Virus record (IMG/VR): IMGVR_UViG_3300021963_000067
Coordinates: 1-64,000 of that record
Origin: a virus
DNA length: 64,000 bases
Reading direction: 5' to 3' (one strand)
Of this stretch, positions 33,552-64,000 are shown piece after piece; the first letter of the stretch is position 1; every line of letters begins with the position of its first letter. Position numbers and translations under genes: made by a program. A model generated the notes under the pieces. That model had not been told where the DNA came from, did not search any database, and worked only from the letters and a program-made list of their open reading frames with translations.

Positions 33552-34349
33552 GTGATCATGAAACTGCCATTAGGTAAAATCCAAAATCTACAAACTCAGT
33601 TAGAGAATCATCCTCTTCTAAACGACAACGTTATCAAAGACATAGACGGTCTTCGACTGTTTATGGAACATCACGTGTTTGCAGTTTGGGATTTTATGAG
33701 TTTAATTAAAGGACTGCAACATCATGTGTGCCCTAGCACCACATGCTGGACTCCAGGACACCATATACGTAGTGGATCGGCAAGATTGGTTAATGAAATT
33801 GTGTTAGCCGAGGAAACAGATATTGATCTCGATGGAGTAAGTTCTATAAGCCATCACGATCTCTACTGTCAGGCAATGTTAGAAATTGGTGCTGATGCTA
33901 ATTTAATAGAAGAATGGGTTGAATCAGTAGAAGTAAATGGATTTCATGGAGCTAAAGAATACTGTTCAGTGCCTACTGCAAGTCTTGAATTTATGGAAAA
34001 AACTTTTGAATTTATTGACTCCGGTGAACCACATGTTATTGCAGCCGCATTTTGTTTTGGAAGAGAAACTGTTATTCCAAAGATGTTTGCCAGTCTATTA
34101 ACAAAATTAAAATTAAGTAATTTTGATTGCCCTAAGTTTTTTTATTATCTATCTCGGCACATCGAAATCGACAGCGAAAAACATGGACCAGCAAGTATAG
34201 CCCTTGTTGAGGATTTGTGCAATCATGATCCGGTACATATTCATGAAGCAGAGCAAGCGGCTCTGATAGCTCTTAAAGCAAGAATTAAACTTTGGGACGA
34301 TCTACACAAACTAATTCAGGAACAATCGCATTTATATACTCATGACTGA
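33552..34349 (+). CDS. DUF3050 / heme-oxygenase-like helical metalloenzyme
   Basis: FMEHHVFAVWDFMSL, EIVLAEETD, SHHDLY, GRETVIP, RHIEIDSEKHG; ATG at 33558 is an alternative start. Confidence 0.8.
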   Translation: MIMKLPLGKIQNLQTQLENHPLLNDNVIKDIDGLRLFMEHHVFAVWDFMSLIKGLQHHVCPSTTCWTPGHHIRSGSARLVNEIVLAEETDIDLDGVSSISHHDLYCQAMLEIGADANLIEEWVESVEVNGFHGAKEYCSVPTASLEFMEKTFEFIDSGEPHVIAAAFCFGRETVIPKMFASLLTKLKLSNFDCPKFFYYLSRHIEIDSEKHGPASIALVEDLCNHDPVHIHEAEQAALIALKARIKLWDDLHKLIQEQSHLYTHD

Positions 34350-35812
34350 GGATCACCTATTAGTTCATAATAGTATTTGCGTAAGAAATTATTCCTCATT
34401 TGGCCCAATGCATTCCAATCGATGTCCACAACTTTATATTTTTGATATTCCTCTATATCTAAACCAAAGCTACCTACTGACATCAATGACCAAACATTAA
34501 GTTTTTGATACTCTTTAGCCTCATTGACTAATTGCAAGCGCCATTCTCTGGCGGTAATTGCATCGCAATATTCAGTTCTCCACACATACCTACCTTCTTT
34601 CATTTCCCAGGTGAAGCCGTACTTTTCTGCATCTCGGTCAAATTCGCTACGATGCTCGTCGTGAGCATCTTTATAAACTGTAAGATTTTGCCACACCCAC
34701 GACGGTATTTTATTTTCCATTAGCCATTTGTTTGTATTTTGACAATCTTCAAACGTTTCGGGCGGTATCCCACAGATAAATGCCGAAGTGATTGTAATTT
34801 TCTCTTTCCATTTATCGTGATACAATTCTACTAGATAATCTTTTGAACTTCTACCAATCCACGATTTACCAATTAATTTAGCAGCGTCTGAATTAAAACT
34901 TTCTATTCCAAGAAAAGCTCCCTTAAGACCGTTTTCTAATAACATATCAACTGACTCAGGATATGCAGCCAGTAAATCTATTCGTAAATATGTTGCGTAA
35001 TTAATTTTAAAAGGCAATGTTTTGACCATATCGGTGAACGCCCGAAGTCTATCTTGATCAGCATTGAAGGTATCATCTAGCATATAGTAGTTGGTAACAC
35101 CCCAATTTTCGTAATTGCTGATAATTTCTTGTTTAACACATTCCATGTTTCGATTGAAATCTCGTTTACTTTTTCCTATATACGGATATCGACAAAATTT
35201 ACATTTAAAAATACAACCCCTCCCTAATTCAAGGGGCAACGTCTCTGTTGGTTGTATGTAATCATTTTTACTCCACTGATGATCACATGCTTCTATATCA
35301 AAAACTTTACCATCAGGCACTGCAAAACTTTCTCTAACAGTTCGATTGCCTTCAATGATTTCGAATTGAGGATGTGAAGTATTTTTGGACAAATGATCTA
35401 ACAATGATAAGACATGCTGTTCTGTATGTCCCAAAAAAACATAATCAAACAAAGTTTTGTTTCTATGCAGTCTGCTAAAATGAGGAGCTGCCGGACTTCC
35501 TACAATTCGTTTAATTTGAGGGTATCTTTTTTTAATTGTAAAAAATACACTTTCTATTTTTTTAATTATTTCACCATTTGCTGGATCTTTAAGATCCATC
35601 ATAACGCCTAATCCAATTATTTTAGTTTTTGGAGTAATATGCGATTCTAATATTTTAATAATTTGGTGTTCAGTAAAAAAGTGAATGAAGTCGACAACCT
35701 GTATATCATACCCGTGCTTTCGTAAATACCAAGCAACTTGATAACTACCCAGAGGTCTAAAAATATTTGTTTTATTAACAGATACGCAGCAAGTTAGAAA
35801 TATAGCATCCAC
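34340..35812 (-). CDS. B12-binding-domain radical SAM enzyme
   Basis: RGCIFKCKFC; N-terminal RPLGSYQVAWYLRKHGY; DDTF, GIES, GIPPET. Confidence 0.85.
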   Translation of the reverse strand: MDAIFLTCCVSVNKTNIFRPLGSYQVAWYLRKHGYDIQVVDFIHFFTEHQIIKILESHITPKTKIIGLGVMMDLKDPANGEIIKKIESVFFTIKKRYPQIKRIVGSPAAPHFSRLHRNKTLFDYVFLGHTEQHVLSLLDHLSKNTSHPQFEIIEGNRTVRESFAVPDGKVFDIEACDHQWSKNDYIQPTETLPLELGRGCIFKCKFCRYPYIGKSKRDFNRNMECVKQEIISNYENWGVTNYYMLDDTFNADQDRLRAFTDMVKTLPFKINYATYLRIDLLAAYPESVDMLLENGLKGAFLGIESFNSDAAKLIGKSWIGRSSKDYLVELYHDKWKEKITITSAFICGIPPETFEDCQNTNKWLMENKIPSWVWQNLTVYKDAHDEHRSEFDRDAEKYGFTWEMKEGRYVWRTEYCDAITAREWRLQLVNEAKEYQKLNVWSLMSVGSFGLDIEEYQKYKVVDIDWNALGQMRNNFLRKYYYELIGDPQS

Positions 35813-35854
35813 AGTAATATTTATGAATACTTTTGTTGCTATAAATATTCTATC

Positions 35855-36328
35855 ATGTTCATTATCACTTTATTCGAATACATATTCTATTTCGGCCTCT
35901 GGACGTTTATTCTATACTGGATACATCGTGTAGGACACCAAGTAAAATTTTTATCAAGTCTTCATCGACAGCATCATAAGTTTGTTAGAGAAAATACAAT
36001 CACTTGGCATTGGTCAAATATATTTTTATTCAACGATAACTGGCCTAGTACATTCGACTTCTGGGTCACAGAAGTAATCCCTACTGCAATATTTGTAATA
36101 ATAACACAACAGTGGTGGTTGGGAATTGGATTTTATCTGTATGCAGCCTTTGTTCAAGAATGGCTAGAACACAATGATAATTTTAATTTTTACCCTATTT
36201 ACACCTCGGGAAAGTGGCACCTACTGCATCACACACAGTATCCATGTAATTACGGAATTGGTACACCGTTTTGGGATTGGGTATTTAACACTAATAAAAT
36301 ATTAGATAACGCTAGACATTCGATTTAA
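35855..36328 (+). CDS. Sterol desaturase/fatty-acid hydroxylase family membrane protein
   Basis: His boxes HRVGH, HRQHH, HLLHH; NYG...WDWVF. Confidence 0.8.
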   Translation: MFIITLFEYIFYFGLWTFILYWIHRVGHQVKFLSSLHRQHHKFVRENTITWHWSNIFLFNDNWPSTFDFWVTEVIPTAIFVIITQQWWLGIGFYLYAAFVQEWLEHNDNFNFYPIYTSGKWHLLHHTQYPCNYGIGTPFWDWVFNTNKILDNARHSI

Positions 36329-36676
36329 TCTATCTCGAACATTTAGGTAGTCATCAACTGGATATATTTCAATAGTTCTAGTCCATCCTTTTTCTGCAAA
36401 AAAATTCCTTGCTCCGATGCTTATAGGATGATTACTAAACTCATTAAGATCGTTAGCAGTCTTAAAAAGAATATAGCTTTCCAGTACACATCCATCATTC
36501 CTTAAGATTAAAAATCTATCGAGAGCTTTTCCCTGGCGGATAAAATCTCCAGCTAACGCTCTAACTCCTGTACCTTTTTTACCGGCCAACTGCTCTTCCA
36601 TATCTTTATAATAAAATTCATCTACGGTTTTTGCGTTTCTATCTTTATGTGTAAGAGTTACTTTTTGCATTATCAT
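36302..36676 (-). CDS. Hypothetical protein (paralog of 46552-46866)
   Basis: FIRQGK...F...DLNEF..HP...FFAEKG. Confidence 0.6.
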   Translation of the reverse strand: MIMQKVTLTHKDRNAKTVDEFYYKDMEEQLAGKKGTGVRALAGDFIRQGKALDRFLILRNDGCVLESYILFKTANDLNEFSNHPISIGARNFFAEKGWTRTIEIYPVDDYLNVRDRLNRMSSVI

Positions 36677-37419
36677 AATTCTAATTCCTTTAATACGTAT
36701 TCGGGCAAAGCCGAGTAATGATATTTTGAACAGTGTACTTCTTCTAGAATAAATGTTTTCAATTCGTCAAAATTTGTAATATATTTCTCGATCGAATCTT
36801 CTGTATAATTTACAGAAAAAGATATTTCTTTTTTAAAATAGTCATTAATTTTTTTAAAACTTATATCTTTACCGATCATGTCTTCAAGATAAATTTTTTC
36901 AATTAAACTAGCATGATGGTGTCCTACATTTTCGCTCCACCAATAATCTCTACAAAGATTTTGAAAAATTACAAAAATTCTTCGGCGTTCTCTATTTGAT
37001 CCATCGTAATAAAACGGCTCAAATCTTTTTGAAGACCCTTGAAAATTTTTGTTATCGATAGCTATCAACATGCTTGTTAACACTTTCCAGATATTTCTTC
37101 TCAACATTAAAAAAATAGATAACTCATTCTCGTTAATAATAGATGATATATCAGTGTGCCACGATAAAAAAGTTTTAAATCCAAAATATTCGTGCCCATT
37201 TTTTTCTTTAAAACTAATCATTTTTTGAGTTATAGCATTATGATCAAACATGTTTGATTTAAATATGTTTGATGTTTGAGAAATAATCGAAGGATTGAAC
37301 GGTTCTGAATTTGTAAATTCTGGAATCCAGATATTAGAATAACTATTCAATGTATTACAAAAAAATGTAGTCCCACTTCTCGGTGTACCTAAAATTATAA
37401 AATTTGTTGAGTGTGCCAT
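36673..37419 (-). CDS. Sulfotransferase (Stf0-like P-loop)
   Basis: GTPRSGTT 5'-PSB loop; GFK; RRN...S. Confidence 0.7.
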   Translation of the reverse strand: MAHSTNFIILGTPRSGTTFFCNTLNSYSNIWIPEFTNSEPFNPSIISQTSNIFKSNMFDHNAITQKMISFKEKNGHEYFGFKTFLSWHTDISSIINENELSIFLMLRRNIWKVLTSMLIAIDNKNFQGSSKRFEPFYYDGSNRERRRIFVIFQNLCRDYWWSENVGHHHASLIEKIYLEDMIGKDISFKKINDYFKKEISFSVNYTEDSIEKYITNFDELKTFILEEVHCSKYHYSALPEYVLKELEL

Positions 37420-37461
37420 AACTCTATTTATAGTGGGTTTTAATCTGCTAAATATTTTGTT

Positions 37462-38694
37462 ATGAAAATTTTAGTGATAGGAAATCGATCAGTGAGCCAT
37501 CACATGGCGCTACGAATGTCTAAAGAACCCGGAGTCTCAAAAGTTTATCACTACGGAGCCCCTACAAGTTTTCAAAAAGAAAAATACGTTCCTATTTTAA
37601 AAAATAGTGATACATCGGCACTACATTATGCATCCTTGTTAGATTTAGATTTGATTGTACCCTGTAATCCAATCTATCAAATGCAAGACGAATATCAATC
37701 AACATTTTGTAAATTAAAAATCCCCACTTTGTTTCCGTCAAAACAAAACGGCGAACTAGAGTTTTCAAAAATAAAATTTAAAACATTATTGCAAGAACTG
37801 GGGATTCCTACTCCTAGTTATCAAGTACTTTCATATGATATACTAATTGATTCTTTTTTTGATATTCCTAGACCATTTGTTTTTAAATTTGATCAAGATC
37901 ATCGAGGAGGCTTACAAACAGTTATTGTAAATGATGACAACGTTGTAGACGAATATAGGGTATTAAAAGACTCCGGTAAACAACGTTTTTTGGAATTCAT
38001 GTTAGGGGATTTTATAGATCAAAAATTTATAGTAGAAACTTTTATAGATATTGTTCGAGAGTATTCGTACCATGTCTTATGCAGTAAAGATAATCATGTT
38101 TATTTAGGTTCGGCTCGCGACTATAAAAAAAATAATGATGGGGACATTGGAATTAATACTGACGGTATGGGGTCTTACGGGTCAGTGGCCGCAGACAAAA
38201 TTATTGATGAGTATGTAATTAAAATTTTAAATTACCTTAAAAATAACAATAGTGCTTATGTGGGTATAATGTATCTTGGAGTTGCTCTAGATCATACAGG
38301 AATTCCGATGATATTAGAAATTAATACTCGGACAGGTGATACAGAATTTCATAATATACTTCCTCTTATTAACAACAATGTATCAGAACTATTCTATAAT
38401 GCTGCTGTAAATAAACCTTTAGAACCAATAGAGTTTTCTAAAGATAAATCTGTAGCAATTAGAATTGTTAAATCCGATGCAGAAAATAAGAATGATTATT
38501 TTTTTACAAGATTTAAAAATATTCCGTCGGATATTTGCGCATATCAGAGCGGTATTTTAAATGATAAATTTCAAGGAGTATTGACCACTACGGCTGCAAC
38601 TGTAGATCAAGCTAGTGATAGAATTTATTCTTATCTTAATAGTATCAATACATCAAATTTTATTTTTCGATCAGACATTGGATATCTTAAATAA
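37462..38694 (+). CDS. Divergent PurD-like ATP-grasp ligase
   Basis: LEFSK, DYKKNNDGDIGINTDGMGSY, EINTRTGDTE, FRSDIG. Confidence 0.8.
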   Translation: MKILVIGNRSVSHHMALRMSKEPGVSKVYHYGAPTSFQKEKYVPILKNSDTSALHYASLLDLDLIVPCNPIYQMQDEYQSTFCKLKIPTLFPSKQNGELEFSKIKFKTLLQELGIPTPSYQVLSYDILIDSFFDIPRPFVFKFDQDHRGGLQTVIVNDDNVVDEYRVLKDSGKQRFLEFMLGDFIDQKFIVETFIDIVREYSYHVLCSKDNHVYLGSARDYKKNNDGDIGINTDGMGSYGSVAADKIIDEYVIKILNYLKNNNSAYVGIMYLGVALDHTGIPMILEINTRTGDTEFHNILPLINNNVSELFYNAAVNKPLEPIEFSKDKSVAIRIVKSDAENKNDYFFTRFKNIPSDICAYQSGILNDKFQGVLTTTAATVDQASDRIYSYLNSINTSNFIFRSDIGYLK

Positions 38695-38710: not shown

Positions 38711-39505
38711 ATGACACAAAGAATTTTAATAATGGGTTTACCCGGATCAGGCAAAACTTATCTTGCACAACATATTGTAGATCATCTACAAGCAGAAAAA
38801 AAACGGGTAGGATGGCTCAATGCCGACGATGTACGTAAAAAATATAACGACTGGGATTTTAGCCATGAAGGGCGTATTCGTCAAAGTTTACGTATGCGTG
38901 AACTAGCAGACAGCATGCCAGATGTTGATTATGTTATATGTGATTTTGTTGCACCATTAGTTGAAATGCGTAATAATTTTAAAGCAGACTGGACTATATG
39001 GGTTGACACTATTCGTGAAGGTCGGTATGCAGACACTAATGCTATGTTCATTGAACCCGAAGTATATGATTTTCGTATCACTGAACAACAAGCAGAAAAA
39101 TGGGGCGAGTTTGTTGCCGCACATATTATAGATAATCGTAGACGTCCTGTATTTGATTGGAAAAAAGAAACTGTACAAATGCTTGGACGTTGGCAACCAT
39201 GGCATGACGGACATCGTGCATTGTTTGAAAGATTGTTGGCCAAGACTGGGCAGGTAATTATTCAGGTGCGTGATGTACAGGGCTGGCAAGGAAGTAATCC
39301 GTTTGAAGTTGCTAAAGTTAAGAGTTTTATTAAACATGATTTAGATCCGTTATATCAAGGACAATATGAAATACAAGTGGTTCCTAACATTGTTCATATT
39401 GGTTGGGGCCGTGGGGTAGGATACACAAGTGGCGAAGAAACATTTGATGAAAAAGTAACTGATATCAGTGCTACAAAAATTCGTAAAGAATTAGGCTTAA
39501 AGTGA
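38711..39505 (+). CDS. APS-kinase-like P-loop kinase fused to HxGH nucleotidyltransferase
   Basis: GLPGSGKT, NADDVR, DFS..GR; GRWQPWHDGH; ISATKIR. Confidence 0.8.
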   Translation: MTQRILIMGLPGSGKTYLAQHIVDHLQAEKKRVGWLNADDVRKKYNDWDFSHEGRIRQSLRMRELADSMPDVDYVICDFVAPLVEMRNNFKADWTIWVDTIREGRYADTNAMFIEPEVYDFRITEQQAEKWGEFVAAHIIDNRRRPVFDWKKETVQMLGRWQPWHDGHRALFERLLAKTGQVIIQVRDVQGWQGSNPFEVAKVKSFIKHDLDPLYQGQYEIQVVPNIVHIGWGRGVGYTSGEETFDEKVTDISATKIRKELGLK

Positions 39506-39579
39506 ACAAATATCACGTTAGATTCAACACCAAGCATAACGGTAGTTCGTTAGTTTGGAGAATCTTTGACAAAGATTAA
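39502..39579 (+). pseudogene. Possible truncated gene remnant (25 aa)
   Basis: GTGA-coupled ORF MNKYHVRFNTKHNGSSLVWRIFDKD ends at the convergent SDR stop. Confidence 0.35.
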
Positions 39580-40340
39580 ATGGTAACTAACTCGCCACCG
39601 TCGAGATAGATACAAGATCCGTTTATATAACTTGACCTATCAGAAGCTAAAAACAAAACACTATCTGCTACTTCTTTAGGTTCTAAAATTCGACCTATAG
39701 GAAATCTTGCTTTGGCTTTTTCTAATTCTTCCTCTATTGTTGTATTGTTCATTTTACTATGAACTTCTAATTGACGTGTTAACATATCTGTATTAGTGGC
39801 GACAGGATTTACGCAATTAATTCGAATGCCTTTACCGACATAAACGTTGGCCATTCCCATACTGGAAAGAATTAAAGCTGCATTAGCAGCGCCGCCTGTT
39901 AAGTGCGAAGCTACAGCTACCTTGCCACCGTAGCCAATAACATTTACAATAGATCCGGACTTCATTACTTCAAGGGCTGCATACATTGAATTAATATAGG
40001 TAAAAAATTTTGATTGCATTGCATCAAGATAGTTATGAGAGTCAACTTCTAGTGGAGCCACTTTTTTAGCAGCACCTGCACAATTTACTAATACATCAAT
40101 AGGACCATTATTTTCTACTGCGTTCTGTACCATTATCGATGCTTGATCTCGATCTTTGAGATCAACTTGAATAATATGAACATTTCCTAACAATTTTTTA
40201 GCATTGGAAAGATGTTCAATATTTCTCGAAGCAATAGTAACTTTTGCACCTTCTTCTAAAAAAGATTCAGCGCAGGCAAATCCAATACCTTGACTTCCGC
40301 CTGTAATTAAAACGTGTTTATTTTTGAGGTGTAAGTCCAT
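39576..40340 (-). CDS. Short-chain dehydrogenase/reductase
   Basis: TGGSQGIG, VNCAG, RINCVNP, LDGG; no canonical YxxxK. Confidence 0.88.
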   Translation of the reverse strand: MDLHLKNKHVLITGGSQGIGFACAESFLEEGAKVTIASRNIEHLSNAKKLLGNVHIIQVDLKDRDQASIMVQNAVENNGPIDVLVNCAGAAKKVAPLEVDSHNYLDAMQSKFFTYINSMYAALEVMKSGSIVNVIGYGGKVAVASHLTGGAANAALILSSMGMANVYVGKGIRINCVNPVATNTDMLTRQLEVHSKMNNTTIEEELEKAKARFPIGRILEPKEVADSVLFLASDRSSYINGSCIYLDGGELVTI

Positions 40341-40945
40341 GTTATATGTTCCGGTGGAGTATCTCTACTAATTTGAATTGCAAGCCTGGGTCCTTTTACA
40401 TTTTCAACTGAATGTAAAATATTTGCATGTAGGCATCCCCACTTGCGTAGGGGCAATCTAACTCGATCAATTTCTTCTACACGATCATAACTATCAATGG
40501 TGGCGTGTGGGTCAAAATTTGATCTTAGATCTGGACGCACAATGTCTCGTCCTTTTTCTCTGTACCAAACAGTTTCGACATTATCACCACCTAAGTCTAA
40601 AAGGTATTGCACGGTAAAGTTTCTACTGGCATCAACGTGAGGAGCCAACGCAGGTCCAACATTATCAAATATGGATATTCCGCACCCCTTGGGTTCTTGT
40701 TGAAAGTATTCCCGTACCCAGTCTTCAAATTCTGTGCTGATCGCATATCTATGTGTGCCTGCGGTAGTAAATGTAGATCCATCTTTGGCTGTAATGGTTC
40801 TATATTGATAGTCGCTGTATCCAGGCAATTGTTTAAGGGCGTTAACTCTATTTTGTTCTGCACGATCCTCCAAGGCAGTATAGGCAGCATCTATAATCGA
40901 TTGCGGGGGATCAGGAAGGTCAAGATAACCGTAGGTAAACATCAC
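40307..40945 (-). CDS. Putative 2OG-Fe(II)/cupin oxygenase (paralog of 62690-63328)
   Basis: PHVD...LHSVEN...R. Confidence 0.6.
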   Translation of the reverse strand: MMFTYGYLDLPDPPQSIIDAAYTALEDRAEQNRVNALKQLPGYSDYQYRTITAKDGSTFTTAGTHRYAISTEFEDWVREYFQQEPKGCGISIFDNVGPALAPHVDASRNFTVQYLLDLGGDNVETVWYREKGRDIVRPDLRSNFDPHATIDSYDRVEEIDRVRLPLRKWGCLHANILHSVENVKGPRLAIQISRDTPPEHITWTYTSKINTF

Positions 40946-49927: not shown

Positions 49928-49962
49928 ATATTTAACGGTAAAAATGTTTGAATAAATATTTC

Positions 49963-51786: not shown

Positions 51787-51787
51787 C

Positions 51788-52852: not shown

Positions 52853-52906
52853 AATTTATTATTTGTAAAAATATTTATCTGCCAAAATTATTGTGTAAAT
52901 ATAATC

Positions 52907-55814: not shown

Positions 55815-56417
55815 TTACATGGTAGGCCCGTTTCCGTTCCTAAACCCCACTGCACCGCCTTCTGCTTCAATACGCTTTAACACATCTTCAAACAATATGG
55901 GCGCAAAGTCTGGTGTTTGTTCTACGCATACACAATGATATCTAGGATCGATTTCATCGCCGTATAAAACATCACCGGTTTTAGCATCAACTCCACGGGC
56001 CTTACGCACTCGATTTGAGTGTAAATGTCCATGAATGTTAACTCCAAAGCGTCCTAAACTATCGCTATGTACAGGAATGTGACTTAAGATCATTCCGTTC
56101 ATAACATGATAAGCACGTAATTCACGAAAGTGAGCACGATAGTCCTCGTCCTTAAAGATATCGTGGTTACCACGGATCAACACCTTGTCCCCGTTTAATC
56201 TGCGCATAATCGCCAACGCTTTACGGTTAATAACAACATCACCTAAATGGTAGACTTTGTCAGTGGGTTTAACTCGTTCGTTCCACGCTTTAACCATTGC
56301 TTCGTCCATTTCGTCTGGATCTGTCCACGGCCTTAATTTTTCACCGTCATTACGAGTAAACTTACATACGCCCGTGTGACCAAAGTGAGTATCGCTTACT
56401 AAAAATACACTAGGCAT
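55815..56417 (-). CDS. Calcineurin-like metallophosphoesterase
   Basis: SDTH, LGD, GNHD, SH, HGHLH. Confidence 0.9.
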   Translation of the reverse strand: MPSVFLVSDTHFGHTGVCKFTRNDGEKLRPWTDPDEMDEAMVKAWNERVKPTDKVYHLGDVVINRKALAIMRRLNGDKVLIRGNHDIFKDEDYRAHFRELRAYHVMNGMILSHIPVHSDSLGRFGVNIHGHLHSNRVRKARGVDAKTGDVLYGDEIDPRYHCVCVEQTPDFAPILFEDVLKRIEAEGGAVGFRNGNGPTM

Positions 56418-56428
56418 ACTATTCTCCT

Positions 56429-56896
56429 TTATTCAATAGATTTAAATGTTCGCCAATCATCAATGTTTGGCTTTTCGTTTTCATCGTATGTCCAACCCAA
56501 TGCTTTCATCATGCGATGCTTGACTAGTAGGTTAGGACTACGGAATCTTTCTGTATCCTGAAATCCCATCATCACACCTACTTCACATACTGCACCCGAT
56601 CTGCAAATTCCAGCAAAACAGTGAACAACCACATTCATACGATTGTCCAAGGCATGTTGCAGTAAACGAACTAACTCTGCGGCCTGCTCATGACTGCACT
56701 TCATAGCTTCTTCAAGAACATGGTCCTTTTCTTCTACATCCAAAAACTCAAAGTCATGACGCTCTTTGAATTGGTGCTTGGCGTCCGGCCGCCAACTTGC
56801 TGGATCAACAATGCTGATCAGCATACTGTTAGGGCCGGCATCGTGATGAAATCCTGTTGGAATATCACTTGCAGCTACGTTTTCAATCCACGGCAT
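56429..56896 (-). CDS. Cys-based (CX5R) protein-tyrosine/dual-specificity phosphatase-like protein
   Basis: VHCFAGICRS. Confidence 0.8.
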   Translation of the reverse strand: MPWIENVAASDIPTGFHHDAGPNSMLISIVDPASWRPDAKHQFKERHDFEFLDVEEKDHVLEEAMKCSHEQAAELVRLLQHALDNRMNVVVHCFAGICRSGAVCEVGVMMGFQDTERFRSPNLLVKHRMMKALGWTYDENEKPNIDDWRTFKSIE

Positions 56897-57123
56897 TATA
56901 CACGCTCCTTTTTCATTCGGCCAATTCTACTGGCTTTGTTCCAATCGTAGATAACGCCATCTGGACATTTGCCATCGATCACCGAGTCAACTCCAAACTT
57001 ACCTACAATTTCAAATTCGCCGCCTTGTATGGAAACGAACACATTCAATTCTTTGGCGAATGCCATAGCCAAATCTAAGTTGGCAAATTCTGTTTCTTTA
57101 TTTTTGTCTATTACTTTATACAT
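56896..57123 (-). CDS. Hypothetical early protein
   Basis: Start moved to MYKVID, 7 nt after -10 box. Confidence 0.65.
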   Translation of the reverse strand: MYKVIDKNKETEFANLDLAMAFAKELNVFVSIQGGEFEIVGKFGVDSVIDGKCPDGVIYDWNKASRIGRMKKERV

Positions 57124-57129
57124 GCTGTT

Positions 57130-57158
57130 ATTATACAACCTTTAGCCCAATTTGTCAA
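57130..57158 (-). promoter_or_regulatory. Consensus sigma70 promoter (probably leaderless)
   Basis: TTGACA-N17-TATAAT. Confidence 0.85.
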
Positions 57159-57200: not shown

Positions 57201-58430
57201 TCAATAGTATTCGACAACTATTCCGGAAACAAAGTTTCGATATTTTTCTTCTACATCGTCCGGTGTACTGCCTGTGAAAATAGCCCAACCGTTATTAAAA
57301 ACTGAGAGATCATTTCTTACCATTTGTATCTTTCCTTTTGGAAGACTTACTACATCTGCAAGGTTGTTTTCTTTAATTTCTATATGTTGAATTTCTTTCT
57401 TTTCAAAGGGCAATTGTCTGAATAAAACAGATTTATTAATTGATAGAGTATAGTCAATTCCATGCAACAACTTGTTAATTAATTTATATCCGTAATCTTT
57501 TTCCCCGGCATGCCACATTAGTGTATGAGATACAGATAACCTTGGAGAAAAATCAATAAAGTGTATCTTATTATTTTTGTCCACTATTATGTCAAGCATA
57601 AATGGACTGTTATCAAATTTTATTTTGTCAAAGAATTTTTTTAGATACTGTGTTGTTTTATCTTGTAATAATCTACTGGAATATTTTGAAGGATATTTCA
57701 ATCCAGTTTCCGCCGCATAAGGATAAGATGTTGATTCGATATCGAAAATAAAATCAAAATATATTTGCTCTTTATAAACATGCCCAATAAAAGAAACAAC
57801 ATCGCCCTCGACATATGTCTGAATCATATACTCATGCATACCTGAGCAGTATTGTAATTTTTTATAATTGACTCCATGCGTTTCCTGATACTTATGGAGT
57901 TGTTCTTCGGTATCAGCAAAAAAATCTATTAGCGATTGCTGATCCTCAATAATTTGTATTCCTACACTAGCGGTGCCAACGCTAGGCTTTACTATGCAAG
58001 GATATTTTATGTTTTTAGGAGGAGTAGATAATGTCTCGCAAGATTCTAAAGTATCATATAACACAGGAAACGGTATTTGTAGTTCATGCCATAAGTTATA
58101 ATAACCTATTTTACTATTAATTAATTTTGCAGTATCTGGAGAAATTCCGTGTAAGTTAAATTTTTTATTAAGTTCAGCAACAACTAATATTGACCGGTCG
58201 CCAAATGCTGGAAAAATACAAGCATAATTATTTTTTTCAAATAAGTGTTCTACAGTTTTTGCAATGCTATTAGTAATGTGTCGATTGGGATATAAACTTG
58301 TAAGTTTATTTAATATTTCAAATTGCATAGCACTTTCCGGAAGTATTACATCAACTTCAACTCCGTGTTGCAACAAATTATCTAAAATAATTAAATTATT
58401 GTAATTAACCAATAAAAATAAAAGTTTCAA
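57201..58430 (-). CDS. ATP-grasp ligase
   Basis: NSK, YPCIVKPSVGTASVG, QTYVEG, IDFSPR; TTG start uncertain. Confidence 0.8.
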   Translation of the reverse strand: MKLLFLLVNYNNLIILDNLLQHGVEVDVILPESAMQFEILNKLTSLYPNRHITNSIAKTVEHLFEKNNYACIFPAFGDRSILVVAELNKKFNLHGISPDTAKLINSKIGYYNLWHELQIPFPVLYDTLESCETLSTPPKNIKYPCIVKPSVGTASVGIQIIEDQQSLIDFFADTEEQLHKYQETHGVNYKKLQYCSGMHEYMIQTYVEGDVVSFIGHVYKEQIYFDFIFDIESTSYPYAAETGLKYPSKYSSRLLQDKTTQYLKKFFDKIKFDNSPFMLDIIVDKNNKIHFIDFSPRLSVSHTLMWHAGEKDYGYKLINKLLHGIDYTLSINKSVLFRQLPFEKKEIQHIEIKENNLADVVSLPKGKIQMVRNDLSVFNNGWAIFTGSTPDDVEEKYRNFVSGIVVEYY

Positions 58431-58466: not shown

Positions 58467-59357
58467 TCAATTTGATAGAGCGATGACTGCATTTTTAATT
58501 AATTGTTCTACAGGTTTACGACCAAATTCATTTAACTCGTTAAATTCTCGTATAAAGTCCGCTTGTACAGATCGATCACTCATATATTCTTTTAAAAATT
58601 GTGACCAAAATTTTTCTGCTGCCGGATCGGTATTTTTTGGAAGAATGAATGTAAATGCGTCAACGTCTTGCCAGCCTGGAAGAATACTATTTACAGTAGG
58701 TACATCGGGATATTCTTGTAGACGCTGATTACTGCCAACAGCAATTAATTTAATTTTTCCCGAGTCAATCATTGCCTTAGAAATTAATAATGGTGGGGCT
58801 CCAAATTGAACGTGTCCTCCAGCTATATCTTGTACTAACGGTGCACCGCCTTTATACGGTACCCAGACAAAATCAGGTTTTTTCTTAGACAGTTCTATAA
58901 ACTTTTCTAACAACATTCTTTGTCCGGGTGCACCGAAACCCACTGTTACAGTACCTTTGTACAAGTCTTGAATAGAATTGATCCCGCTATTTTTATGAGT
59001 AATATAGGCCGAAACACTATTTCTAACAGCAGTTACAGTATCTAATTCTGCAGTTGGATTTTTTATTCGTTGTGTTGCAATTGTCCCAACAGTGCCAAAT
59101 GATATATGATACCCGTCTTTAGGCATACCGGCAATTTCATTCATACCAATAAGCCCTTCAGCACCTGGCCTATATAATGGTGTAAAATTTAAACCTTTCT
59201 TGGTTGCATATTTTTCAAAGTGTCTAAATGTTTGATCTACACCTCCACCTGGAGCAAACGGTATAACAACTGTTATAGGTTTAGATGTAGGGTCGAATGC
59301 ATATGCATTTGTAATTGTTAAAATTAACAGTGATACAAAATATTTTAAAATTCTCAT
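58467..59357 (-). CDS. Bug/TctC substrate-binding protein
   Basis: Signal peptide; VIPFAPGGGVD, RPGAEG, VPYKGGAP, PDVPT. Confidence 0.9.
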   Translation of the reverse strand: MRILKYFVSLLILTITNAYAFDPTSKPITVVIPFAPGGGVDQTFRHFEKYATKKGLNFTPLYRPGAEGLIGMNEIAGMPKDGYHISFGTVGTIATQRIKNPTAELDTVTAVRNSVSAYITHKNSGINSIQDLYKGTVTVGFGAPGQRMLLEKFIELSKKKPDFVWVPYKGGAPLVQDIAGGHVQFGAPPLLISKAMIDSGKIKLIAVGSNQRLQEYPDVPTVNSILPGWQDVDAFTFILPKNTDPAAEKFWSQFLKEYMSDRSVQADFIREFNELNEFGRKPVEQLIKNAVIALSN

Positions 59358-59425
59358 TTCGAGATTGCCTCTTTGTTTAATAGGGTATTTATTTTTGCTA
59401 ATTGATATCTTTAATGAAGCTGGTA

Positions 59426-60583
59426 TTAGAGATCACCTAGATAGTAAGGAGGAGACATGATCCATTTATAGGCATTCGGTTGACCGTTTGGATCTAAGAA
59501 CAAAAAATCTTTATCAATATTGTCTAATTGATTTTGATAATAGTACTGCCAGCGATCTACTAGAGAGCTAAATTCGGAATTGTCATAAAACCAAAAATCT
59601 TTGTCCTTTCTAAATCCGCCAGGCTTTGCAGCTTGGAATCGATTAAAGTTCCAATACGGATAGCAAACATCTTTGATAATTTCACTGCAAATTCCATAGT
59701 GCTGACTGGTGTTGATAAACTGTATTTTGTCAGGATTAGACTTAAACCATAAAAATAGTTGGTGGGCCATTTCGTAGGCAAGCAACGGCATGTCCGGAGT
59801 CCAATAAAAATACTCTACATTATTTGAATCGCTGTTTACCGGAACAGCATTTTGTATAAGATCATCTCGAAAATAAAAAAATACCTGATTACCTTCAGAA
59901 TTTTTTCTAAGATAGGGTTTATCAGTACCCCAAATTGCGGCCACACGTTTTCCTTGATCTAACAAATTAATTTCTGTATCTGAGTAAGACTGCATTCTTA
60001 AAAAATTTACAGCACTATGCATGTGATTCTGTGTAGTAAACAAATCATCGTTATACAAATTTGAGTTTGCACGTTCTAACCAATCAGCAGTTATGATTTT
60101 TATTTCAGGATGATGAGTTCTTAAATATTCTAAATCTGGCTTAATAACATAATCCCATTCACTGACAAAATTGTTTGCTCCTGTATCTGTAGAATTAGGT
60201 TTATAAATTCCGTTATCTAAAATTTTATAAGGCCACCTAACAAATACATAATCTAATTTAATATTGTTTTGCAAAAAAGTATGTAAAATGTTGTGGCTAT
60301 CAGATCCACCACTGTAATATAAAATTAATTCATCGTAATTGTCTCTAAGTTGTTGCGCTCGTTCTTTATATAATGTTTTTAATGGAATTTTCCCTAATAA
60401 ATCTTTATTAAAGTTTTTAAAGGTGTCATGATACCACAGGTACCAAACTACACACAGCAATCCTTGTTTACGTAGTCGAGTGGCTTCTAATAGAGCTTGA
60501 ACTTTATTTTTATGGGATGAAATTATTTTGTTTGTATCGGAATGGCAAACACAATACATTCCTTGATGATCTGATCTAGTCAT
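59426..60583 (-). CDS. PP-loop family protein (paralog of 61513-62700)
   Basis: RAQQLRD...YSGGSDS. Confidence 0.7.
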   Translation of the reverse strand: MTRSDHQGMYCVCHSDTNKIISSHKNKVQALLEATRLRKQGLLCVVWYLWYHDTFKNFNKDLLGKIPLKTLYKERAQQLRDNYDELILYYSGGSDSHNILHTFLQNNIKLDYVFVRWPYKILDNGIYKPNSTDTGANNFVSEWDYVIKPDLEYLRTHHPEIKIITADWLERANSNLYNDDLFTTQNHMHSAVNFLRMQSYSDTEINLLDQGKRVAAIWGTDKPYLRKNSEGNQVFFYFRDDLIQNAVPVNSDSNNVEYFYWTPDMPLLAYEMAHQLFLWFKSNPDKIQFINTSQHYGICSEIIKDVCYPYWNFNRFQAAKPGGFRKDKDFWFYDNSEFSSLVDRWQYYYQNQLDNIDKDFLFLDPNGQPNAYKWIMSPPYYLGDL

Positions 60584-60611
60584 AAAACTATTTATAGTTC
60601 ATAAATACCCT

Positions 60612-61541
60612 ATGACATATAATACTGAAAATATTTGGAACAAGCTGTTAAATTTAAAAAATCTTCCGTTTGGAAGTGCATTAAGTATCTATGATCCAAC
60701 TCTTGAGACGGAGGTATCTGATATTATTTCTAAAGTATCTGCTCAGAGATGTCTAACTGATATTAACGTACAAGAAAAATTTCTTAACAGATATTATAAC
60801 TGGATACAGGAAACTCAACTCAATACTTTCAACGGATTGGAGAATTTTAAAGTTCGAGCATTTTCCAATGGAACTACTGAATCGTTTGATAAATTCTATC
60901 TTAAAAATAAACAACGTCGAATAAGATATTTTCGAGGTGAATATCTATATCACTTGGCATCGGCTAGTAGTTATTTCGATCAATCGGCATATCTTGATGA
61001 CGAACCGCTATCTAAGAATGATGTTGTCATATTCAGTTTGCCATTTGCAGATACTGGAAATGAACATCCGGAAATGAAAAAAGTATTAACTATTTGCGAA
61101 AAGTTAGATATTCCGGTCATGATCGATTGTTGTTATTTTGGAGTATGCAAAAATATTCATTTTGATTTTTCTTACAAATGCATATATGGAATAACTTTTA
61201 GTTTGAGTAAAATTTTCTCAGTACAACACTTAAGAATTGGTATGAGACTTACTAGAGAAGACGACGATGATCCGTTATTGGTCTACAATAGAAATAGATA
61301 TACTAATCGATTAGGAGCGGCTGTTGGATTTGAGTTGCTCGAACGATATGGTCCGGATTATAATCAACACACATACAGTTCTACTCAGCAGGAATTTTGT
61401 GAACAATTATCAGTGCATGCCAGCAATTGTGTGTTTTTTGCTAATAGTTCGGATAAATTTTTAGAATATAGCAGAGGAACAGCAAACAATAGATTATGTT
61501 TTTCTAGGTACCTTAAATTTGGGGAACTGCCACAGGTTTAA
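60612..61541 (+). CDS. PLP-dependent (fold type I-like) enzyme
   Basis: NGTTE, IDCCY, FSLSK, LRIG. Confidence 0.6.
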   Translation: MTYNTENIWNKLLNLKNLPFGSALSIYDPTLETEVSDIISKVSAQRCLTDINVQEKFLNRYYNWIQETQLNTFNGLENFKVRAFSNGTTESFDKFYLKNKQRRIRYFRGEYLYHLASASSYFDQSAYLDDEPLSKNDVVIFSLPFADTGNEHPEMKKVLTICEKLDIPVMIDCCYFGVCKNIHFDFSYKCIYGITFSLSKIFSVQHLRIGMRLTREDDDDPLLVYNRNRYTNRLGAAVGFELLERYGPDYNQHTYSSTQQEFCEQLSVHASNCVFFANSSDKFLEYSRGTANNRLCFSRYLKFGELPQV

Positions 61542-62700
61542 CGTAATGCCATTTAGTTTTACAAGTATTAAACAATCCTCTAACTTTTCCAGGAAGTTGA
61601 TATCCGTTAGATTCTGTTATAATAAATTTTTCATTTATCTGAGAAAGAAATTCTGAATTAACATTTATAAAAGTATTTCTTTCTAATTCAAATTCTGGAT
61701 GATTAAAAATCCAAGATTGTTTATCTGCTCGATCTGCTTGCATCGGTTTATCTGATTGAAAATTTCCGTTCCATGTAGTATATATTACTGATTTAGTAAT
61801 ATTACTTTGAATAGATATCAGAACGTTTTTTTCTTGTGGCGTTAAGTTGACGGAATCATTGTTAAAAAAGAACTGTTTTATTTCAGGATGTTGGTCTACA
61901 TAACTGCACAACACGTGAGCCTGCTCTAACGGAATATTCGGCATTTTTGGAGTCCAATAAAAATATTCGATAGAATTTCTATTATAATCCATTGCATTTC
62001 CTACTCCAACTGCTGTGTCTAAAAAACAACATAACCAGTTTCCGTTTATAGAAGCAACAATAGGTTTATCTATTCCGTAAATACATGCAACACGTTTGCC
62101 TTTATCCAACAATAACATTTCATTTTTTGATGAGGAAAGAGTGAATCCTATCTCTACATCATTCCATACATTAGCTTTTCTAAAATTATCCTCAACATAA
62201 ATTTTAGAAGTGAAATTTTCAGACCAGTCTACGATTTCTATTTTAATTTCTGGACGAGTTTGATTTAACCAATCGAGAACTGGTTTTATAGCATAGTCCC
62301 ATTCGCTGAGATAGTTAAAGGCACTAGTGTCTATGGTGTTGGGAGTATATAGTTTTTTATCAACAGTCAACATGGGCCACTTAACACATACTTCATCTAG
62401 TTTGATATTGTTATCTATAAATGTTCTTAATATATTATAACTGTCAGAACCTCCTGAAAAATACAATATTAAATAATCATATTCATCTCTTAACTGTTGA
62501 GCTCGTTGTTTATATAAATCATTTAAATTTTGCTTGCCCAACAACGCTTTGTTATATTGTTCAAATACATTGTCATAGAAATGAAATGATATATCAGCAT
62601 TAAGCTGTGTTGCACTTGTTAAAGCATCAAACTTATTATAAAATTTGGTTCCTAATACTTTCCAAAATACATGATCATTAAATTCAAAATTATTCAACAT
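61513..62700 (-). CDS. PP-loop family protein (paralog of 59426-60583)
   Basis: RAQQLRD...FSGGSDS. Confidence 0.7.
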   Translation of the reverse strand: MLNNFEFNDHVFWKVLGTKFYNKFDALTSATQLNADISFHFYDNVFEQYNKALLGKQNLNDLYKQRAQQLRDEYDYLILYFSGGSDSYNILRTFIDNNIKLDEVCVKWPMLTVDKKLYTPNTIDTSAFNYLSEWDYAIKPVLDWLNQTRPEIKIEIVDWSENFTSKIYVEDNFRKANVWNDVEIGFTLSSSKNEMLLLDKGKRVACIYGIDKPIVASINGNWLCCFLDTAVGVGNAMDYNRNSIEYFYWTPKMPNIPLEQAHVLCSYVDQHPEIKQFFFNNDSVNLTPQEKNVLISIQSNITKSVIYTTWNGNFQSDKPMQADRADKQSWIFNHPEFELERNTFINVNSEFLSQINEKFIITESNGYQLPGKVRGLFNTCKTKWHYVKPVAVPQI

Positions 62701-63328
62701 ACTTGGATTCTAATACGTTAATATGATCGGGAAAGGTATTTCTGCTTATTTGAATAGAAATCCTTGGGGAGATTATATTCTCAACGCTATGTAATATATT
62801 GGTATTTAGACAGATCCAGCGATGCTCAGGAACACGCACTCTGGCAACTTCTTGCAGTGTTGAATAATCAGTTATTGCATCAGTTAGGTTAAAATTATTT
62901 TTAAGTTCTAGTCTTTCTAACGGTTTGTTTTTTTCTTGCCACCAAACGGTATCTGCATCAGTGCCGCCAGCCTCTAAAAGATAATGAATAGAAAAGTTTC
63001 GATTTGCATCAACGTGTGGTGCAACAACATAGTCGACAGATGCTTCAAATATATTAATTCCGCATCCGATAGGATCTTGTTTAAAGTGAAGCTTTACCCA
63101 TTCTTCAAACTCTTCACTAATCCAATATCGATAACTACCTGCATTTTTTAGTTGCTTTCCTTCGTCTGTAATAACCGTTCGATTACTATATTCATTGTAT
63201 CCAGGTTGTTCTAATAATTTTGGATTCACTCTGCTTTCTCGTTGACGAGAGACTAATGCGGTGTTAGCTGCATTGATAACAGAGGCCGGTAGCTGTGGAA
63301 GATCTAAGAAGGAATAGATAAAAGTCAT
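62690..63328 (-). CDS. Putative 2OG-Fe(II)/cupin oxygenase (paralog of 40307-40945)
   Basis: PHVDANRNF...LHSVEN...R. Confidence 0.6.
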   Translation of the reverse strand: MTFIYSFLDLPQLPASVINAANTALVSRQRESRVNPKLLEQPGYNEYSNRTVITDEGKQLKNAGSYRYWISEEFEEWVKLHFKQDPIGCGINIFEASVDYVVAPHVDANRNFSIHYLLEAGGTDADTVWWQEKNKPLERLELKNNFNLTDAITDYSTLQEVARVRVPEHRWICLNTNILHSVENIISPRISIQISRNTFPDHINVLESKYVE

Positions 63329-63375
63329 GTGTAAATCCTATGATTCATATTTATTCGATATTTTTACATCAACAA

Positions 63376-64000
63376 CTATTTTTTTAGATTTTGTTTTAAA
63401 AACATAGATACTGCATCACGAGCGTTTATGTCATCGTACGTATTGGCATGACCCGTACCACTAAGTTCAACGGTTGTTAGCGATCCATCAACTCTCCCGT
63501 TCGAACATCTCGATTTTGATTGTCCAAACCACGGATCGATACTGTATGAGATTGTAAGGCTCTTTACGCCTTGTTCAAATCCGATGCCTGTAAAACAAAA
63601 ACCGCTTGACAAAACTATCCCACGGATGCCTTTTATTCGAGTTCGAGCAAGAGCCTCTGCTCCTTCACTGTGCCCCATAAAAAATATGTTATCAACGTCC
63701 ACCCATGACAATTTTTTAAGCTCAAGCATTGCATACGCAATCTCTTGTTCTCGATATGGAATTGCCATTGGGAACCTATGAGACACTGTATTGGTTGTAG
63801 AGTTGCAATTAGAAACTCTTTTCGGCCTTGCAAAGCTATCAGGTAGTATCACAACAAATCCAAGATTGGCTAAATGTCGTCCCCACTGTTGATCATGATA
63901 AGACTGTATGCCTGCGCAACCATGTAGATATATAACTACAGGATATTTTTGGTCTAATTTTATATTTTTAATTCTTTTTGAAAAATTACTTTCCGGAATA
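63376..64000 (-). CDS. Dienelactone-hydrolase-like alpha/beta hydrolase, 5' end beyond window
   Basis: Frame stays open upstream of 63852 (PVVIYLHGCAG); nucleophile elbow GHSEG; DPW; GH. Confidence 0.8.
   Translation of the reverse strand, partial: IPESNFSKRIKNIKLDQKYPVVIYLHGCAGIQSYHDQQWGRHLANLGFVVILPDSFARPKRVSNCNSTTNTVSHRFPMAIPYREQEIAYAMLELKKLSWVDVDNIFFMGHSEGAEALARTRIKGIRGIVLSSGFCFTGIGFEQGVKSLTISYSIDPWFGQSKSRCSNGRVDGSLTTVELSGTGHANTYDDINARDAVSMFLKQNLKK

Follow-up and report, generated by a model that had tools for sequence, protein, structure and literature searches.

An enzyme-rich island of a T4-like phage from lakes and estuaries, probably a replaceable patchwork of tailoring cassettes

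The first 64 kb of the 94,777-bp IMG/VR virus record IMGVR_UViG_3300021963_000067 (CheckV completeness ~27%), here called the window, stem from an uncultured T4-like phage of lakes and estuaries, i.e. of fresh and brackish water, and contain at 33.5-64 kb an island of ~35 genes, nearly all of which encode tailoring enzymes. An earlier note, made from the sequence alone, had described these genes as an island for making or decorating a single late product; that a tailoring-enzyme island is present is borne out by Pfam, NCBIfam, motif scans, profile comparisons and two predicted folds, with which the gene content was checked. Based on comparisons with related viral loci we propose that the region is probably the enzyme-rich part of a replacement-type hypervariable island of the kind known as host recognition cluster (HRC), and that it is a patchwork of cassettes, not one biosynthetic cluster. 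Shown directly are the protein families, their catalytic motifs, the two folds, the linkage of genes into cassettes, the replacement of the island between relatives and the enrichment of promoter boxes.

Island replacement between conserved flanks

Positions 1-33 kb of the window lie nearly entirely on the minus strand and their genes are those of a T4-like virion and backbone. Matches to PHROGs of the baseplate wedge and the tail fibre occur there, a giant 2444-aa protein of the baseplate region carries a T4_gp9_10_N domain, and ThyX is encoded there as well. A tblastn search with the baseplate/peptidase protein yielded 40 matches, 34 in Synechococcus and four in Prochlorococcus phages (best ~42% identity, Kyanoviridae); by this search, the T4_gp9_10_N domain and the baseplate-wedge PHROGs the phage is a T4-like myophage of the cyano/pelagi group. 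Megablast against GenBank phages matched neither the island nor the backbone. As described in the earlier note, the island DNA is AT-richer (GC content 0.31-0.39 vs 0.38-0.44 in the backbone) and switches strand often, with ten strand changes in the 20 kb of its first block, whereas the backbone is almost wholly on the minus strand.

The viral loci compared are designated by L numbers, and G001, G006, G007 and G008 are the records behind L071, L047, L065 and L062, respectively; genes are named by their first coordinate. G006 is a 145.7-kb record of a genus-level relative and encodes an orthologue of the 2444-aa protein (72% identity). The two records are collinear over all 95 kb of the present one, and on either side of the island the proteins are 55-94% identical in sequence; window 1-33,341 corresponds to G006 138,985-103,690 and positions 65,203-94,759 of the record to G006 71,570-39,796. 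This comparison bounds the variable stretch at 33,552-65,034. Between the common flanks lie 31.5 kb in this phage vs 32 kb in G006, and except for a phosphatase islet (56429 and 56896, 65-67%) no island gene has an orthologue there. The G006 island is nevertheless made of the same enzyme families: seven family types match it at 24-40%, namely radical S-adenosylmethionine (SAM) enzymes, both PP-loop families, the Rieske oxygenase, the desaturase, the 2-oxoglutarate (2OG) oxygenase and TctC. Most island genes are without a G006 counterpart, i.e. the DUF3050 gene, both ATP-grasp ligases, the short-chain dehydrogenase/reductase (SDR), the 212-aa oxygenases, the pyridoxal-phosphate (PLP) enzyme, the hydrolase and the tail-fibre gene 54130.

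The same site recurs elsewhere. L047, L054, L065 and L067 have the backbone genes 26486-33341 in common order and then carry different islands, which start directly 3' of a small junction ORF (open reading frame). Moreover, homologues of 56429 and 65203 are adjacent in L008 and L062, and thus the 57.2-64.2 kb block, which is missing there, is an insertion relative to these loci. Both phosphatases of the islet are kept in L008 and L062 at 74-88%, and G006 keeps one phosphatase and an 80-aa ORF; because of this conservation (65-88% in L008, L062 and G006) we count the islet as backbone.

33141..33341, plus strand: 66-aa ORF at the conserved left island junction (76-91% identity, same position in L047/G006, L054, L065 and L067)
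55815..57138, minus strand: conserved islet of metallophosphoesterase, dual-specificity phosphatase and 80-aa ORF (Pfam)

The pattern is that of island replacement at a fixed site, not of the inheritance of a cluster.

The island DNA is phage DNA and the contig is not chimeric. The backbone/island junction is spanned by L004, an IMG/VR contig assembled from another metagenome, which is collinear with the window from 24.4 to 45.7 kb (88-94% nucleotide identity). Contigs of four runs from other studies fully cover 30-49.9 kb, and 87-92% of the sampled words of 40-49.9 kb are present in estuary and lake-water runs of several studies; these public-run pieces are short DNA contigs, and among the pieces listed none bridges the junction. 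Public contig coverage breaks repeatedly near 33.2-33.5 kb, and among the public runs listed with this DNA none is an RNA run. ARAGORN found no tRNA or tmRNA gene anywhere in the window, including 33389-33534 at the left edge of the island.

Gene cassettes and enzyme families

To map gene linkage, all ORFs of 79 viral loci, each comprising 10 kb on either side of a PP390 gene, were clustered and mapped, PP390 being a family of PP-loop enzymes with two members in the island. The families of the island co-occur in these loci, typically 6-10 per 20 kb. The genes that form the recurring units are the following.

40307..40945, minus strand: 2OG-Fe(II) oxygenase of a virus-only family, 212 aa (invariant H103, D105 and H178; paralogue 62690 49% identical)
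40942..41895, minus strand: exported TctC/Bug solute-binding protein (PF03401 132 bits; signal-peptide-like N-terminus)
41903..42493, minus strand: third 2OG-Fe(II) oxygenase paralogue, from an internal ATG (hhalign vs the oxygenase family 98.9%, E 1e-17)
46552..46866, minus strand: small protein s104, a frequent PP-loop companion (family in 28 of the 79 loci)
46892..47761, minus strand: PP-loop enzyme of a ~300-aa family, PP300 (SGGIDS; profile matches NAD synthetase and MnmA PP-loop domains, E 5e-6)
47758..48597, minus strand: Rieske non-haem-iron oxygenase alpha subunit (Rieske 33 bits, Ring_hydroxyl_A 24.7 bits)
48594-49397, minus strand: membrane fatty-acid desaturase (FA_desaturase 46 bits; its sequence shows the His boxes HRLFSH, HRGYHH and HNNHH)
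49379-49927, minus strand: conserved 182-aa desaturase companion (pair with 48594 kept at 56-59% in L062)
50672..52303, plus strand: three tandem members of the 2OG-Fe(II) oxygenase superfamily, 50672, 51148 and 51788 (hhalign 98.7%, 97.9% and 93%; shared invariant triad)
58467..59357, minus strand: exported TctC/Bug solute-binding protein (PF03401 70 bits; signal-peptide-like N-terminus)
59426..60583, minus strand: virus-only AsnB-shaped PP-loop enzyme PP390, 385 aa (SGGSDS motif; predicted fold)
61513..62700, minus strand: second PP390 paralogue (41% identity to 59426; SGGSDS motif)
62690..63328, minus strand: 2OG-Fe(II) oxygenase, paralogue of 40307 (49% identity; overlaps the start of 61513 by 11 nt)

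PP390 adjoins TctC, and in some loci a DctP-family binding protein is present in addition or instead. Of the 88 non-redundant PP390 genes, 40 have TctC or DctP as direct neighbour, in 38 cases with the same orientation, vs ~8 expected by chance. Similarly, a desaturase lies within two genes of PP300 for 24 of the 40 non-redundant PP300 copies, the recurring unit being PP300, one intervening gene and then one or two desaturases; in further units PP390 is accompanied by a 104-aa protein, by a P450 and by other partners, or radical SAM genes stand in tandem. The window holds the units oxygenase-TctC-oxygenase (41903, 40942, 40307), PP390-TctC (59426, 58467), oxygenase-PP390 (62690, 61513) and desaturase-Rieske-PP300-s104 (48594 to 46552). 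Smaller pieces, the sub-blocks 35855-36302-36673 and 48594-49379, co-travel in single other loci at 37-61% identity.

A motif scan identifies exactly five SGGxDS PP-loop ORFs (45464, 46892, 52286, 59426 and 61513). For PP390 59426 there are 1041 metagenomic homologues, all unnamed and without Pfam domains; relatives occur on 411 IMG/VR contigs and in none of 50,697 GenBank phage records, in a set of 185,579 species genomes only three short contigs of metagenome-assembled genomes (MAGs) carry one, and the Atlas clusters closest to it are viral to 100%. The PP390 model (pLDDT, the predicted local distance difference test score, 88.9) is matched best by AsnB (1ct9) and human ASNS (both Z 10.3), followed by TsnB9 (8.8) and beta-lactam synthetase (8.4); vs 1ct9 and 9b6c, Z is 10.3 with a root-mean-square deviation of 5.9-6.7 over 277-298 residues. 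The match begins at the equivalent of AsnB residue 72, which argues that PP390 has no glutaminase domain, and 59426 and 61513 have no Pfam GATase or Asn_synthase match at E <= 0.01 and lack the N-terminal Cys of a glutaminase. With AsnB, ASNS, TsnB9 and the beta-lactam and carbapenam synthetases PP390 has in common the SGGxDS PP-loop and a fold that matches over ~250-300 residues (Z 8.4-10.3), which on the strength of the model would imply a common chemistry, in which a carboxylate is adenylated and then attacked by a nitrogen nucleophile. Unlike AsnB, it is almost virus-only and genetically tied to exported binding proteins, has no N-terminal catalytic Cys and is only 7-10% identical.

Six island proteins (40307, 41903-42493, 62690, 50672, 51148 and 51788) form one 2OG-Fe(II) oxygenase family. 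In an alignment of 43 sequences H103, D105 and H178 are invariant and R187 is found in at least 90%; the model of the 212-aa oxygenase (pLDDT 93.8) is a double-stranded beta-helix, i.e. metal-binding triad, basic residue and fold are those of 2OG-Fe(II) dioxygenases. Foldseek links this model to proline hydroxylases, GriE and PHD2 with probabilities of 0.99-1.0, at low TM-scores of 0.3-0.44. The shorter 41903 aligns its HxD and its distal His with the family, and its ORF is retained in L004.

The island products appear to be distributed over three compartments, i.e. exported binding proteins, integral-membrane di-iron enzymes and soluble enzymes. Both TctC proteins exceed the PF03401 cut-off of 27 bits and have signal-peptide-like N-termini, as read by eye. 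Desaturase and FA_hydroxylase have hydrophobic N-termini and His boxes, and the remaining proteins look soluble. General Pfam scans of the island ORFs of this genome, which is ~27% complete, detected no TctA family, and PF01970 (TctA) has no match in five large relatives, two of them complete; the TctC proteins would thus be orphans that need a host transporter.

Many of these genes carry a promoter-like box. Taking a TATAAATA-like box just upstream of a gene as the mark of a T4-type late -10 element, TAAATA is found 7-14 nt upstream of 10 of 56 island genes vs 0.28 expected, while TATAAATA is not enriched overall. (T)ATAAATA boxes stand back-to-back in divergent intergenic regions of 40-60 bp, 7-14 nt from the start codons:

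35806..35861, both directions: late-promoter-like intergenic region with back-to-back (T)ATAAATA boxes
37413-37468, both directions: the same
52846-52913, both directions: the same
60577-60618, both directions: the same

In addition, TATAAATA sits 1 nt upstream of the start codon of 33552. The same box precedes the giant baseplate gene and a tail-fibre gene at about -36 together with a Shine-Dalgarno sequence; for 54130 it is a CATAAATA box at -36 with GGAG. These boxes fit T4-type late promoters that may drive nearly leaderless messages, and the late expression assumed in the earlier note is backed to this extent.

The remaining genes of the island are listed below.

33552..34349, plus strand: DUF3050/haem-oxygenase-like di-iron protein (PF11251, 260 bits; no G006 counterpart)
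34340..35812, minus strand: B12-type (class B-like) radical SAM enzyme (Radical_SAM 42.8 bits; CIFKCKFC motif)
35855..36328, plus strand: membrane di-iron enzyme of the FA_hydroxylase family (PF04116 55 bits; His boxes, hydrophobic N-terminus)
36302..36676, minus strand: 124-aa small protein, loosely s104-like (no Pfam match; aligned with the s104 family)
36673..37419, minus strand: possible sulfotransferase, weak (Sulfotransfer_3 21.3 bits, below cut-off, N-terminal 60 residues only)
37462..38694, plus strand: PurD-like ATP-grasp ligase (GARS_A 68 bits; TIGR00877 134 bits, below its 288-bit cut-off)
38711..39505, plus strand: APS-kinase-like P-loop domain with a nucleotidyltransferase-like C-terminal half (APS_kinase 43 bits, residues 5-92)
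39576..40340, minus strand: SDR (adh_short_C2 152 bits)
42557..44203, plus strand: second radical SAM enzyme, paralogue of 34340 (Radical_SAM 50 bits; CAFNCKYC; 31% identity to 34340)
44203-44760, plus strand: weak 185-aa Rossmann fragment (only sub-threshold Pfam matches)
44760-45467, plus strand: protein without family match (only sub-threshold Pfam matches)
45464..46555, plus strand: PP-loop enzyme of a 363-aa family (SGGLDS motif)
49948..50670, plus strand: 240-aa protein without family match (no Pfam or PHROG match)
52286..52852, minus strand: QueC-like PP-loop enzyme, 188 aa (QueC 37 bits; SGGLDS motif)
52907..54107, plus strand: two Asp/Asn-beta-hydroxylase-like cupin oxygenases, 52907 and 53403 (PF05118 24 bits for 52907; hhalign 89.8% between them)
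54130..55710, minus strand: tail-fibre-like protein inside the island (Mtd_N 31 bits; no G006 counterpart)
57201..58430, minus strand: ATP-grasp ligase (ATP-grasp_4 45 bits)
60612..61541, plus strand: short fold-type-I PLP enzyme, aminotransferase-like (weak Pfam; profile vs PDB aminotransferases E 2.6e-5)
63376..64000, on to 64197 of the record, minus strand: dienelactone-hydrolase-like alpha/beta hydrolase (DLH 28.9 bits; limits from the whole record)

The tail-fibre-like 54130, which lies between the two enzyme blocks, has a 67-aa segment in common with the baseplate protein 10255 (60%), and a further tail-fibre-like gene, 26486, is nearby, i.e. tail-fibre genes and enzymes are mixed. The FA_hydroxylase-family enzyme 35855 has homologues in L065, L029 and L071 (54-61% identity); in L065 it is accompanied by 36302 and 36673. 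The family of the PLP enzyme 60612 has an invariant Lys (K200) in an S-x-S-K motif, and its homologues (51-62%) adjoin PP390 in L033, L043 and L072. The 363-aa PP-loop family has ~10 viral homologues with invariant SGGxDS and a weak TilS/MesJ match (E 8e-4). We keep an ABM/Dabb-like match of s104 (E 0.06) as a lead. Residues 154-225 of 38711 give weak matches to NMN/nicotinamide-nucleotide adenylyltransferases; a 92% identical homologue of this protein occurs in the otherwise distant locus L035, suggesting recent transfer. For ORFs left without a family, PHROGs and permissive Pfam searches gave nothing.

Most of the earlier assignments hold, i.e. the five PP-loop enzymes by their motif, and by Pfam matches two ATP-grasp ligases (37462, PurD-like, and 57201), the Rieske protein 47758, desaturase 48594, hydroxylase 35855 and haem-oxygenase-like 33552, and also the two Bug receptors (TctC 40942 and 58467), the PLP enzyme (profile of 60612) and the hydrolase (DLH, 63376). 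The enzymes also retain their catalytic motifs. Others need revision. The two radical SAM genes do have CxxxCxxC motifs and class-B-like best matches, but a B12-binding Pfam match is found for 34340 alone (16.7 bits, below cut-off) and not for 42557. The "about nine" HxD..H oxygenases comprise the six-member family and the two Asp/Asn-hydroxylase-like proteins, whereas 49948 shows no relation to the profile of the oxygenase family, and we dropped it as an oxygenase. Of the two proposed SDRs 39576 is borne out, and the other, the Rossmann fragment 44203, is weak. The proposed fusion of sulfotransferase and APS kinase does not exist: 36673 (21 bits), for which the PDB gives no support either, and the APS-kinase-like 38711 are separate genes, and we rejected 36673 as a sulfotransferase.

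Two ideas on pathway type were dropped as well. The PhpK-family model is the best match for both radical SAM genes (88.9 bits for 34340), and of its 504 positions the alignments span 78-496 (34340) and 239-462 (42557), but both scores are far below cut-off and the Pfam scans gave no PEP-mutase (phosphoenolpyruvate mutase) family, which argues against a phosphonate route. Weak SdmA, HpnJ and HpnR matches, which would hint at sterols or hopanoids, were set aside as generic cross-hits.

Possible roles and alternative explanations

The island may be viewed as a set of short cassettes, many of which have their own T4-type late-promoter box and which come from a toolkit common to many uncultured large phages. 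One type would combine an exported acid-binding protein, here TctC and elsewhere DctP, with two virus-only enzymes, a 2OG-Fe(II) oxygenase and a PP-loop enzyme that resembles the AsnB synthetase half in shape, a second PP300 with a Rieske oxygenase and a membrane fatty-acid desaturase, a third B12-type radical SAM enzymes with di-iron oxidases, and a fourth would consist of runs of cupin/2OG hydroxylases. We speculate that these cassettes act side by side late in infection, each on its own: in the periplasm, small carboxylic acids would be captured by the binding proteins via a host transporter, carboxylates would be adenylated and turned into amides by the PP-loop and ATP-grasp enzymes, and the oxygenases, the desaturase and the hydroxylase would tailor these compounds as well as membrane lipids. 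The most likely role of the island would be late acid capture, amide formation and tailoring of envelope lipids or surfaces under diversifying selection. As position, size and enzyme classes of the island are kept while its genes and its tail fibre are replaced, the selection on its products is probably diversifying and linked to the surface of the cell or the virion, in analogy to O-antigen loci.

Several points weigh against this reading. All functional steps past family assignment are inference, and late expression is deduced from a sequence motif. A TctA partner was found neither in the fragment nor in five large relatives, and uptake would depend on a host transporter. The near-identity of the whole island in L004 and in lake and estuary samples equally fits a co-adapted gene set, and the families that recur in every island version may represent one conserved pathway with fast-evolving parts. 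As to the kinship with HRCs, whose published boundaries are VrlC and the neck gene gp14 (PMC7029224), the record ends short of gp14; the giant protein of 2444 aa lies at a distance of 13.5 kb from the island, and its identity with VrlC is uncertain, as is the position of the island relative to these boundaries. Moreover, Pfam scans of ORFs of at least 80 aa at 33.5-64 kb and of the ten largest ORFs at 64-75 kb found no glycosyltransferase, the most conspicuous class of HRC genes.

In one alternative, close to the earlier note, most of the ~35 genes would cooperate in one coherent pathway on a single late metabolite, lipid or glycan, with the scaffold supplied by the host. The tight packing of the genes, their common late-promoter boxes, the typical tailoring families, the co-occurrence of these families in the 79 loci (typically 6-10 per 20 kb) and the conservation of the block, which L004 keeps with 88-94% nucleotide identity and which recurs in several lakes and one estuary, all agree with such a pathway. 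Yet collinear G006 holds another gene set between the same flanks, L008 and L062 do without the 7-kb block at 57.2-64.2 kb, sub-cassettes move separately and the products are divided among periplasm, membrane and cytoplasm; moreover, neither a scaffold enzyme nor a precursor was found. General Pfam scans gave no condensation, ketosynthase, terpene cyclase, YcaO or lanthipeptide family, i.e. no core of a nonribosomal peptide synthetase (NRPS), polyketide synthase (PKS), terpene or RiPP (ribosomally synthesized and post-translationally modified peptide) cluster, and s104 is a folded family without a variable core and hence without a precursor-peptide signature. The earlier note was right on this absence, but a single product made or decorated by the island appears unlikely to us.

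A similarly low probability is assigned to a decoration of virion proteins, by which oxygenases, radical SAM enzymes and amide ligases would modify tail-fibre or baseplate proteins and so diversify host recognition. The island is located among tail-fibre and baseplate genes and contains a co-varying tail-fibre gene, late-promoter boxes are present, Pelagibacter phage Mosig has an analogous island adjoining its tail fibres, and the model of the 212-aa oxygenase resembles protein prolyl hydroxylases, with Asp/Asn-hydroxylase-like genes also present in the island. However, its fold matches equally include hydroxylases of free amino acids (GriE, proline hydroxylases), proteins of the 95-kb fragment contain no collagen-like or EGF-like hydroxylation motifs, and virion proteins in the cytoplasm are out of reach for binding proteins that are exported and for lipid enzymes integral to the membrane. 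Finally, the island could be misassembled host DNA or a passenger, i.e. decaying genes without a role; "stuffer DNA" was raised by Sullivan et al. as a possibility for the lipopolysaccharide (LPS) clusters of large cyanophages (PMC3037559), the island GC content is below that of the backbone, and most of its genes are absent from cultured phages. This is highly improbable and already largely refuted: both junctions are common to independent assemblies, ORFs are intact, catalytic residues are invariant across families, phage-type promoter boxes stand at gene starts, and PP390 is essentially virus-only.

The patchwork of cassettes is the reading we retain, and within reach of it lies a more specific proposal, which we put forward only tentatively and regard as rather unlikely: exported orphan acid-binding proteins, AsnB-shaped ligases, 2OG oxygenases and membrane di-iron enzymes might constitute an undescribed virus-only system of large uncultured T4-like water phages that builds a strain-specific, amide-linked decoration. 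By the same tentative proposal this would be a lipid or small-molecule decoration of the infected-cell envelope or the virion, diversified by cassette replacement much as O-antigens are in bacteria. If true, it would represent a new layer of host recognition or superinfection exclusion. More generally, if the island products are surface decorations, they would add a chemical layer to the evolution of phage host range in lakes and estuaries, and the clean replacement of the island between collinear relatives offers a natural experiment in which cassettes can be set against tail fibre or host.

The phage lineage and related systems

The phage probably belongs to a jumbo T4-like lineage with genomes of ~350 kb. 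G001, a more distant relative, is a complete genome of 348.7 kb, and the closest relatives, G006-G008, are records of 72-146 kb rated 21-41% complete, which implies genomes of about 350 kb. A search of five large relatives, among them two complete genomes, found no psbA, and none of G001, G006, G007 and G008 has the gene; this speaks against cyanobacteria as hosts, although absence from fragments, of psbA as of TctA, proves little. The host of the lineage looks non-cyanobacterial. The region from the giant baseplate gene to the island (20101-33180) is not purely structural and encodes an endonuclease (phrog_8420), ThyX and a weakly DAHP-synthase-like ORF. Past 65 kb, accessory 2OG-FeII_Oxy_5 and methyltransferase genes are found among tRNAs up to ~74 kb of the 94.8-kb record. 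In this stretch (65,048-75,291) the minus strand carries 27 tRNA genes for almost every amino acid, and between them lie genes for three 2OG-FeII_Oxy_5 oxygenases, one methyltransferase and one HNH endonuclease. Further along (85.7-92.5 kb of the record), CsgG with an SH3 tail, a curlin-repeat protein, a FecR-domain protein and a CHASE2-adenylate/guanylate cyclase are encoded in the same orientation; curli CsgF/G genes are known from pelagimyophages (PMC7029224).

The earlier note saw no recognised class for this region. However, hypervariable islands rich in enzymes are already published for T4-like aquatic phages, as host recognition cluster or hyperplastic region (PMC7029224, PMC3037559). 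In pelagi- and cyanomyophages the HRC is a large, non-syntenic cluster in the structural region (44.6 kb vs 34.2 kb on average) that holds tail fibres, many unrelated genes and LPS genes, radical SAM cassettes distinguish close relatives, and the genomes carry a curli CsgF/G operon elsewhere (Zaragoza-Solas et al. 2020, PMC7029224). Cyanomyophages have several 2OG oxygenases each and LPS clusters near tRNAs (PMC3037559). The present island, too, is non-syntenic, tens of kb long and situated in the virion-gene region of a Cyano-T4-type myophage, has tail-fibre genes among unrelated enzymes as well as radical SAM cassettes, and differs between relatives by gain and loss of cassettes; tRNAs and a curli CsgG cluster are located elsewhere on the genome. 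In contrast to the published HRCs, no LPS or glycosyltransferase genes were found in it, and it is dominated by 2OG oxygenases, PP-loop ligases, di-iron enzymes of the membrane and TctC orphans, none of which PMC7029224 describes; its phage probably has a genome of ~350 kb vs 140-190 kb. Hyperplastic or hypervariable regions of T4-like cyanophages were reportedly described by Millard in 2009.

What is new is thus the content of the island, above all its commonest gene, PP390, which is TctC/DctP-linked, widespread in IMG/VR and absent from the GenBank phage records. These features of PP390 point to a widespread phage-specific chemistry that captures or converts organic acids and has no studied example; literature searches for phage TctC with PP-loop and radical SAM enzymes, or for phage biosynthetic clusters with asparagine synthetase, returned nothing relevant.

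Among cultured phages, Pelagibacter phage Mosig EXVC030M (MT647606.1, Kyanoviridae) offers a parallel, as an island of ~18 kb with tailoring enzymes adjoins its tail fibres. It encodes three MoaA-like radical SAM enzymes, two Asp_Arg_Hydrox proteins, an FA_desaturase that is 31% identical to 48594, aminotransferases, methyltransferases and TauD; Mosig has no match to the PP390 family or to TctC 58467, and its carbamoyltransferase and nitroreductase genes are absent from the island described here. A second parallel, by analogy and not by homology, is provided by bacterial O-antigen and capsule loci. The island has no sugar-nucleotide, glycosyltransferase, flippase or polymerase genes, and its chemistry would be amide formation and oxidation, but the design, which is the one expected when selection diversifies a surface structure, is alike, i.e. 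a fixed site with conserved flanks and similar size, in which the same classes are represented by different genes.

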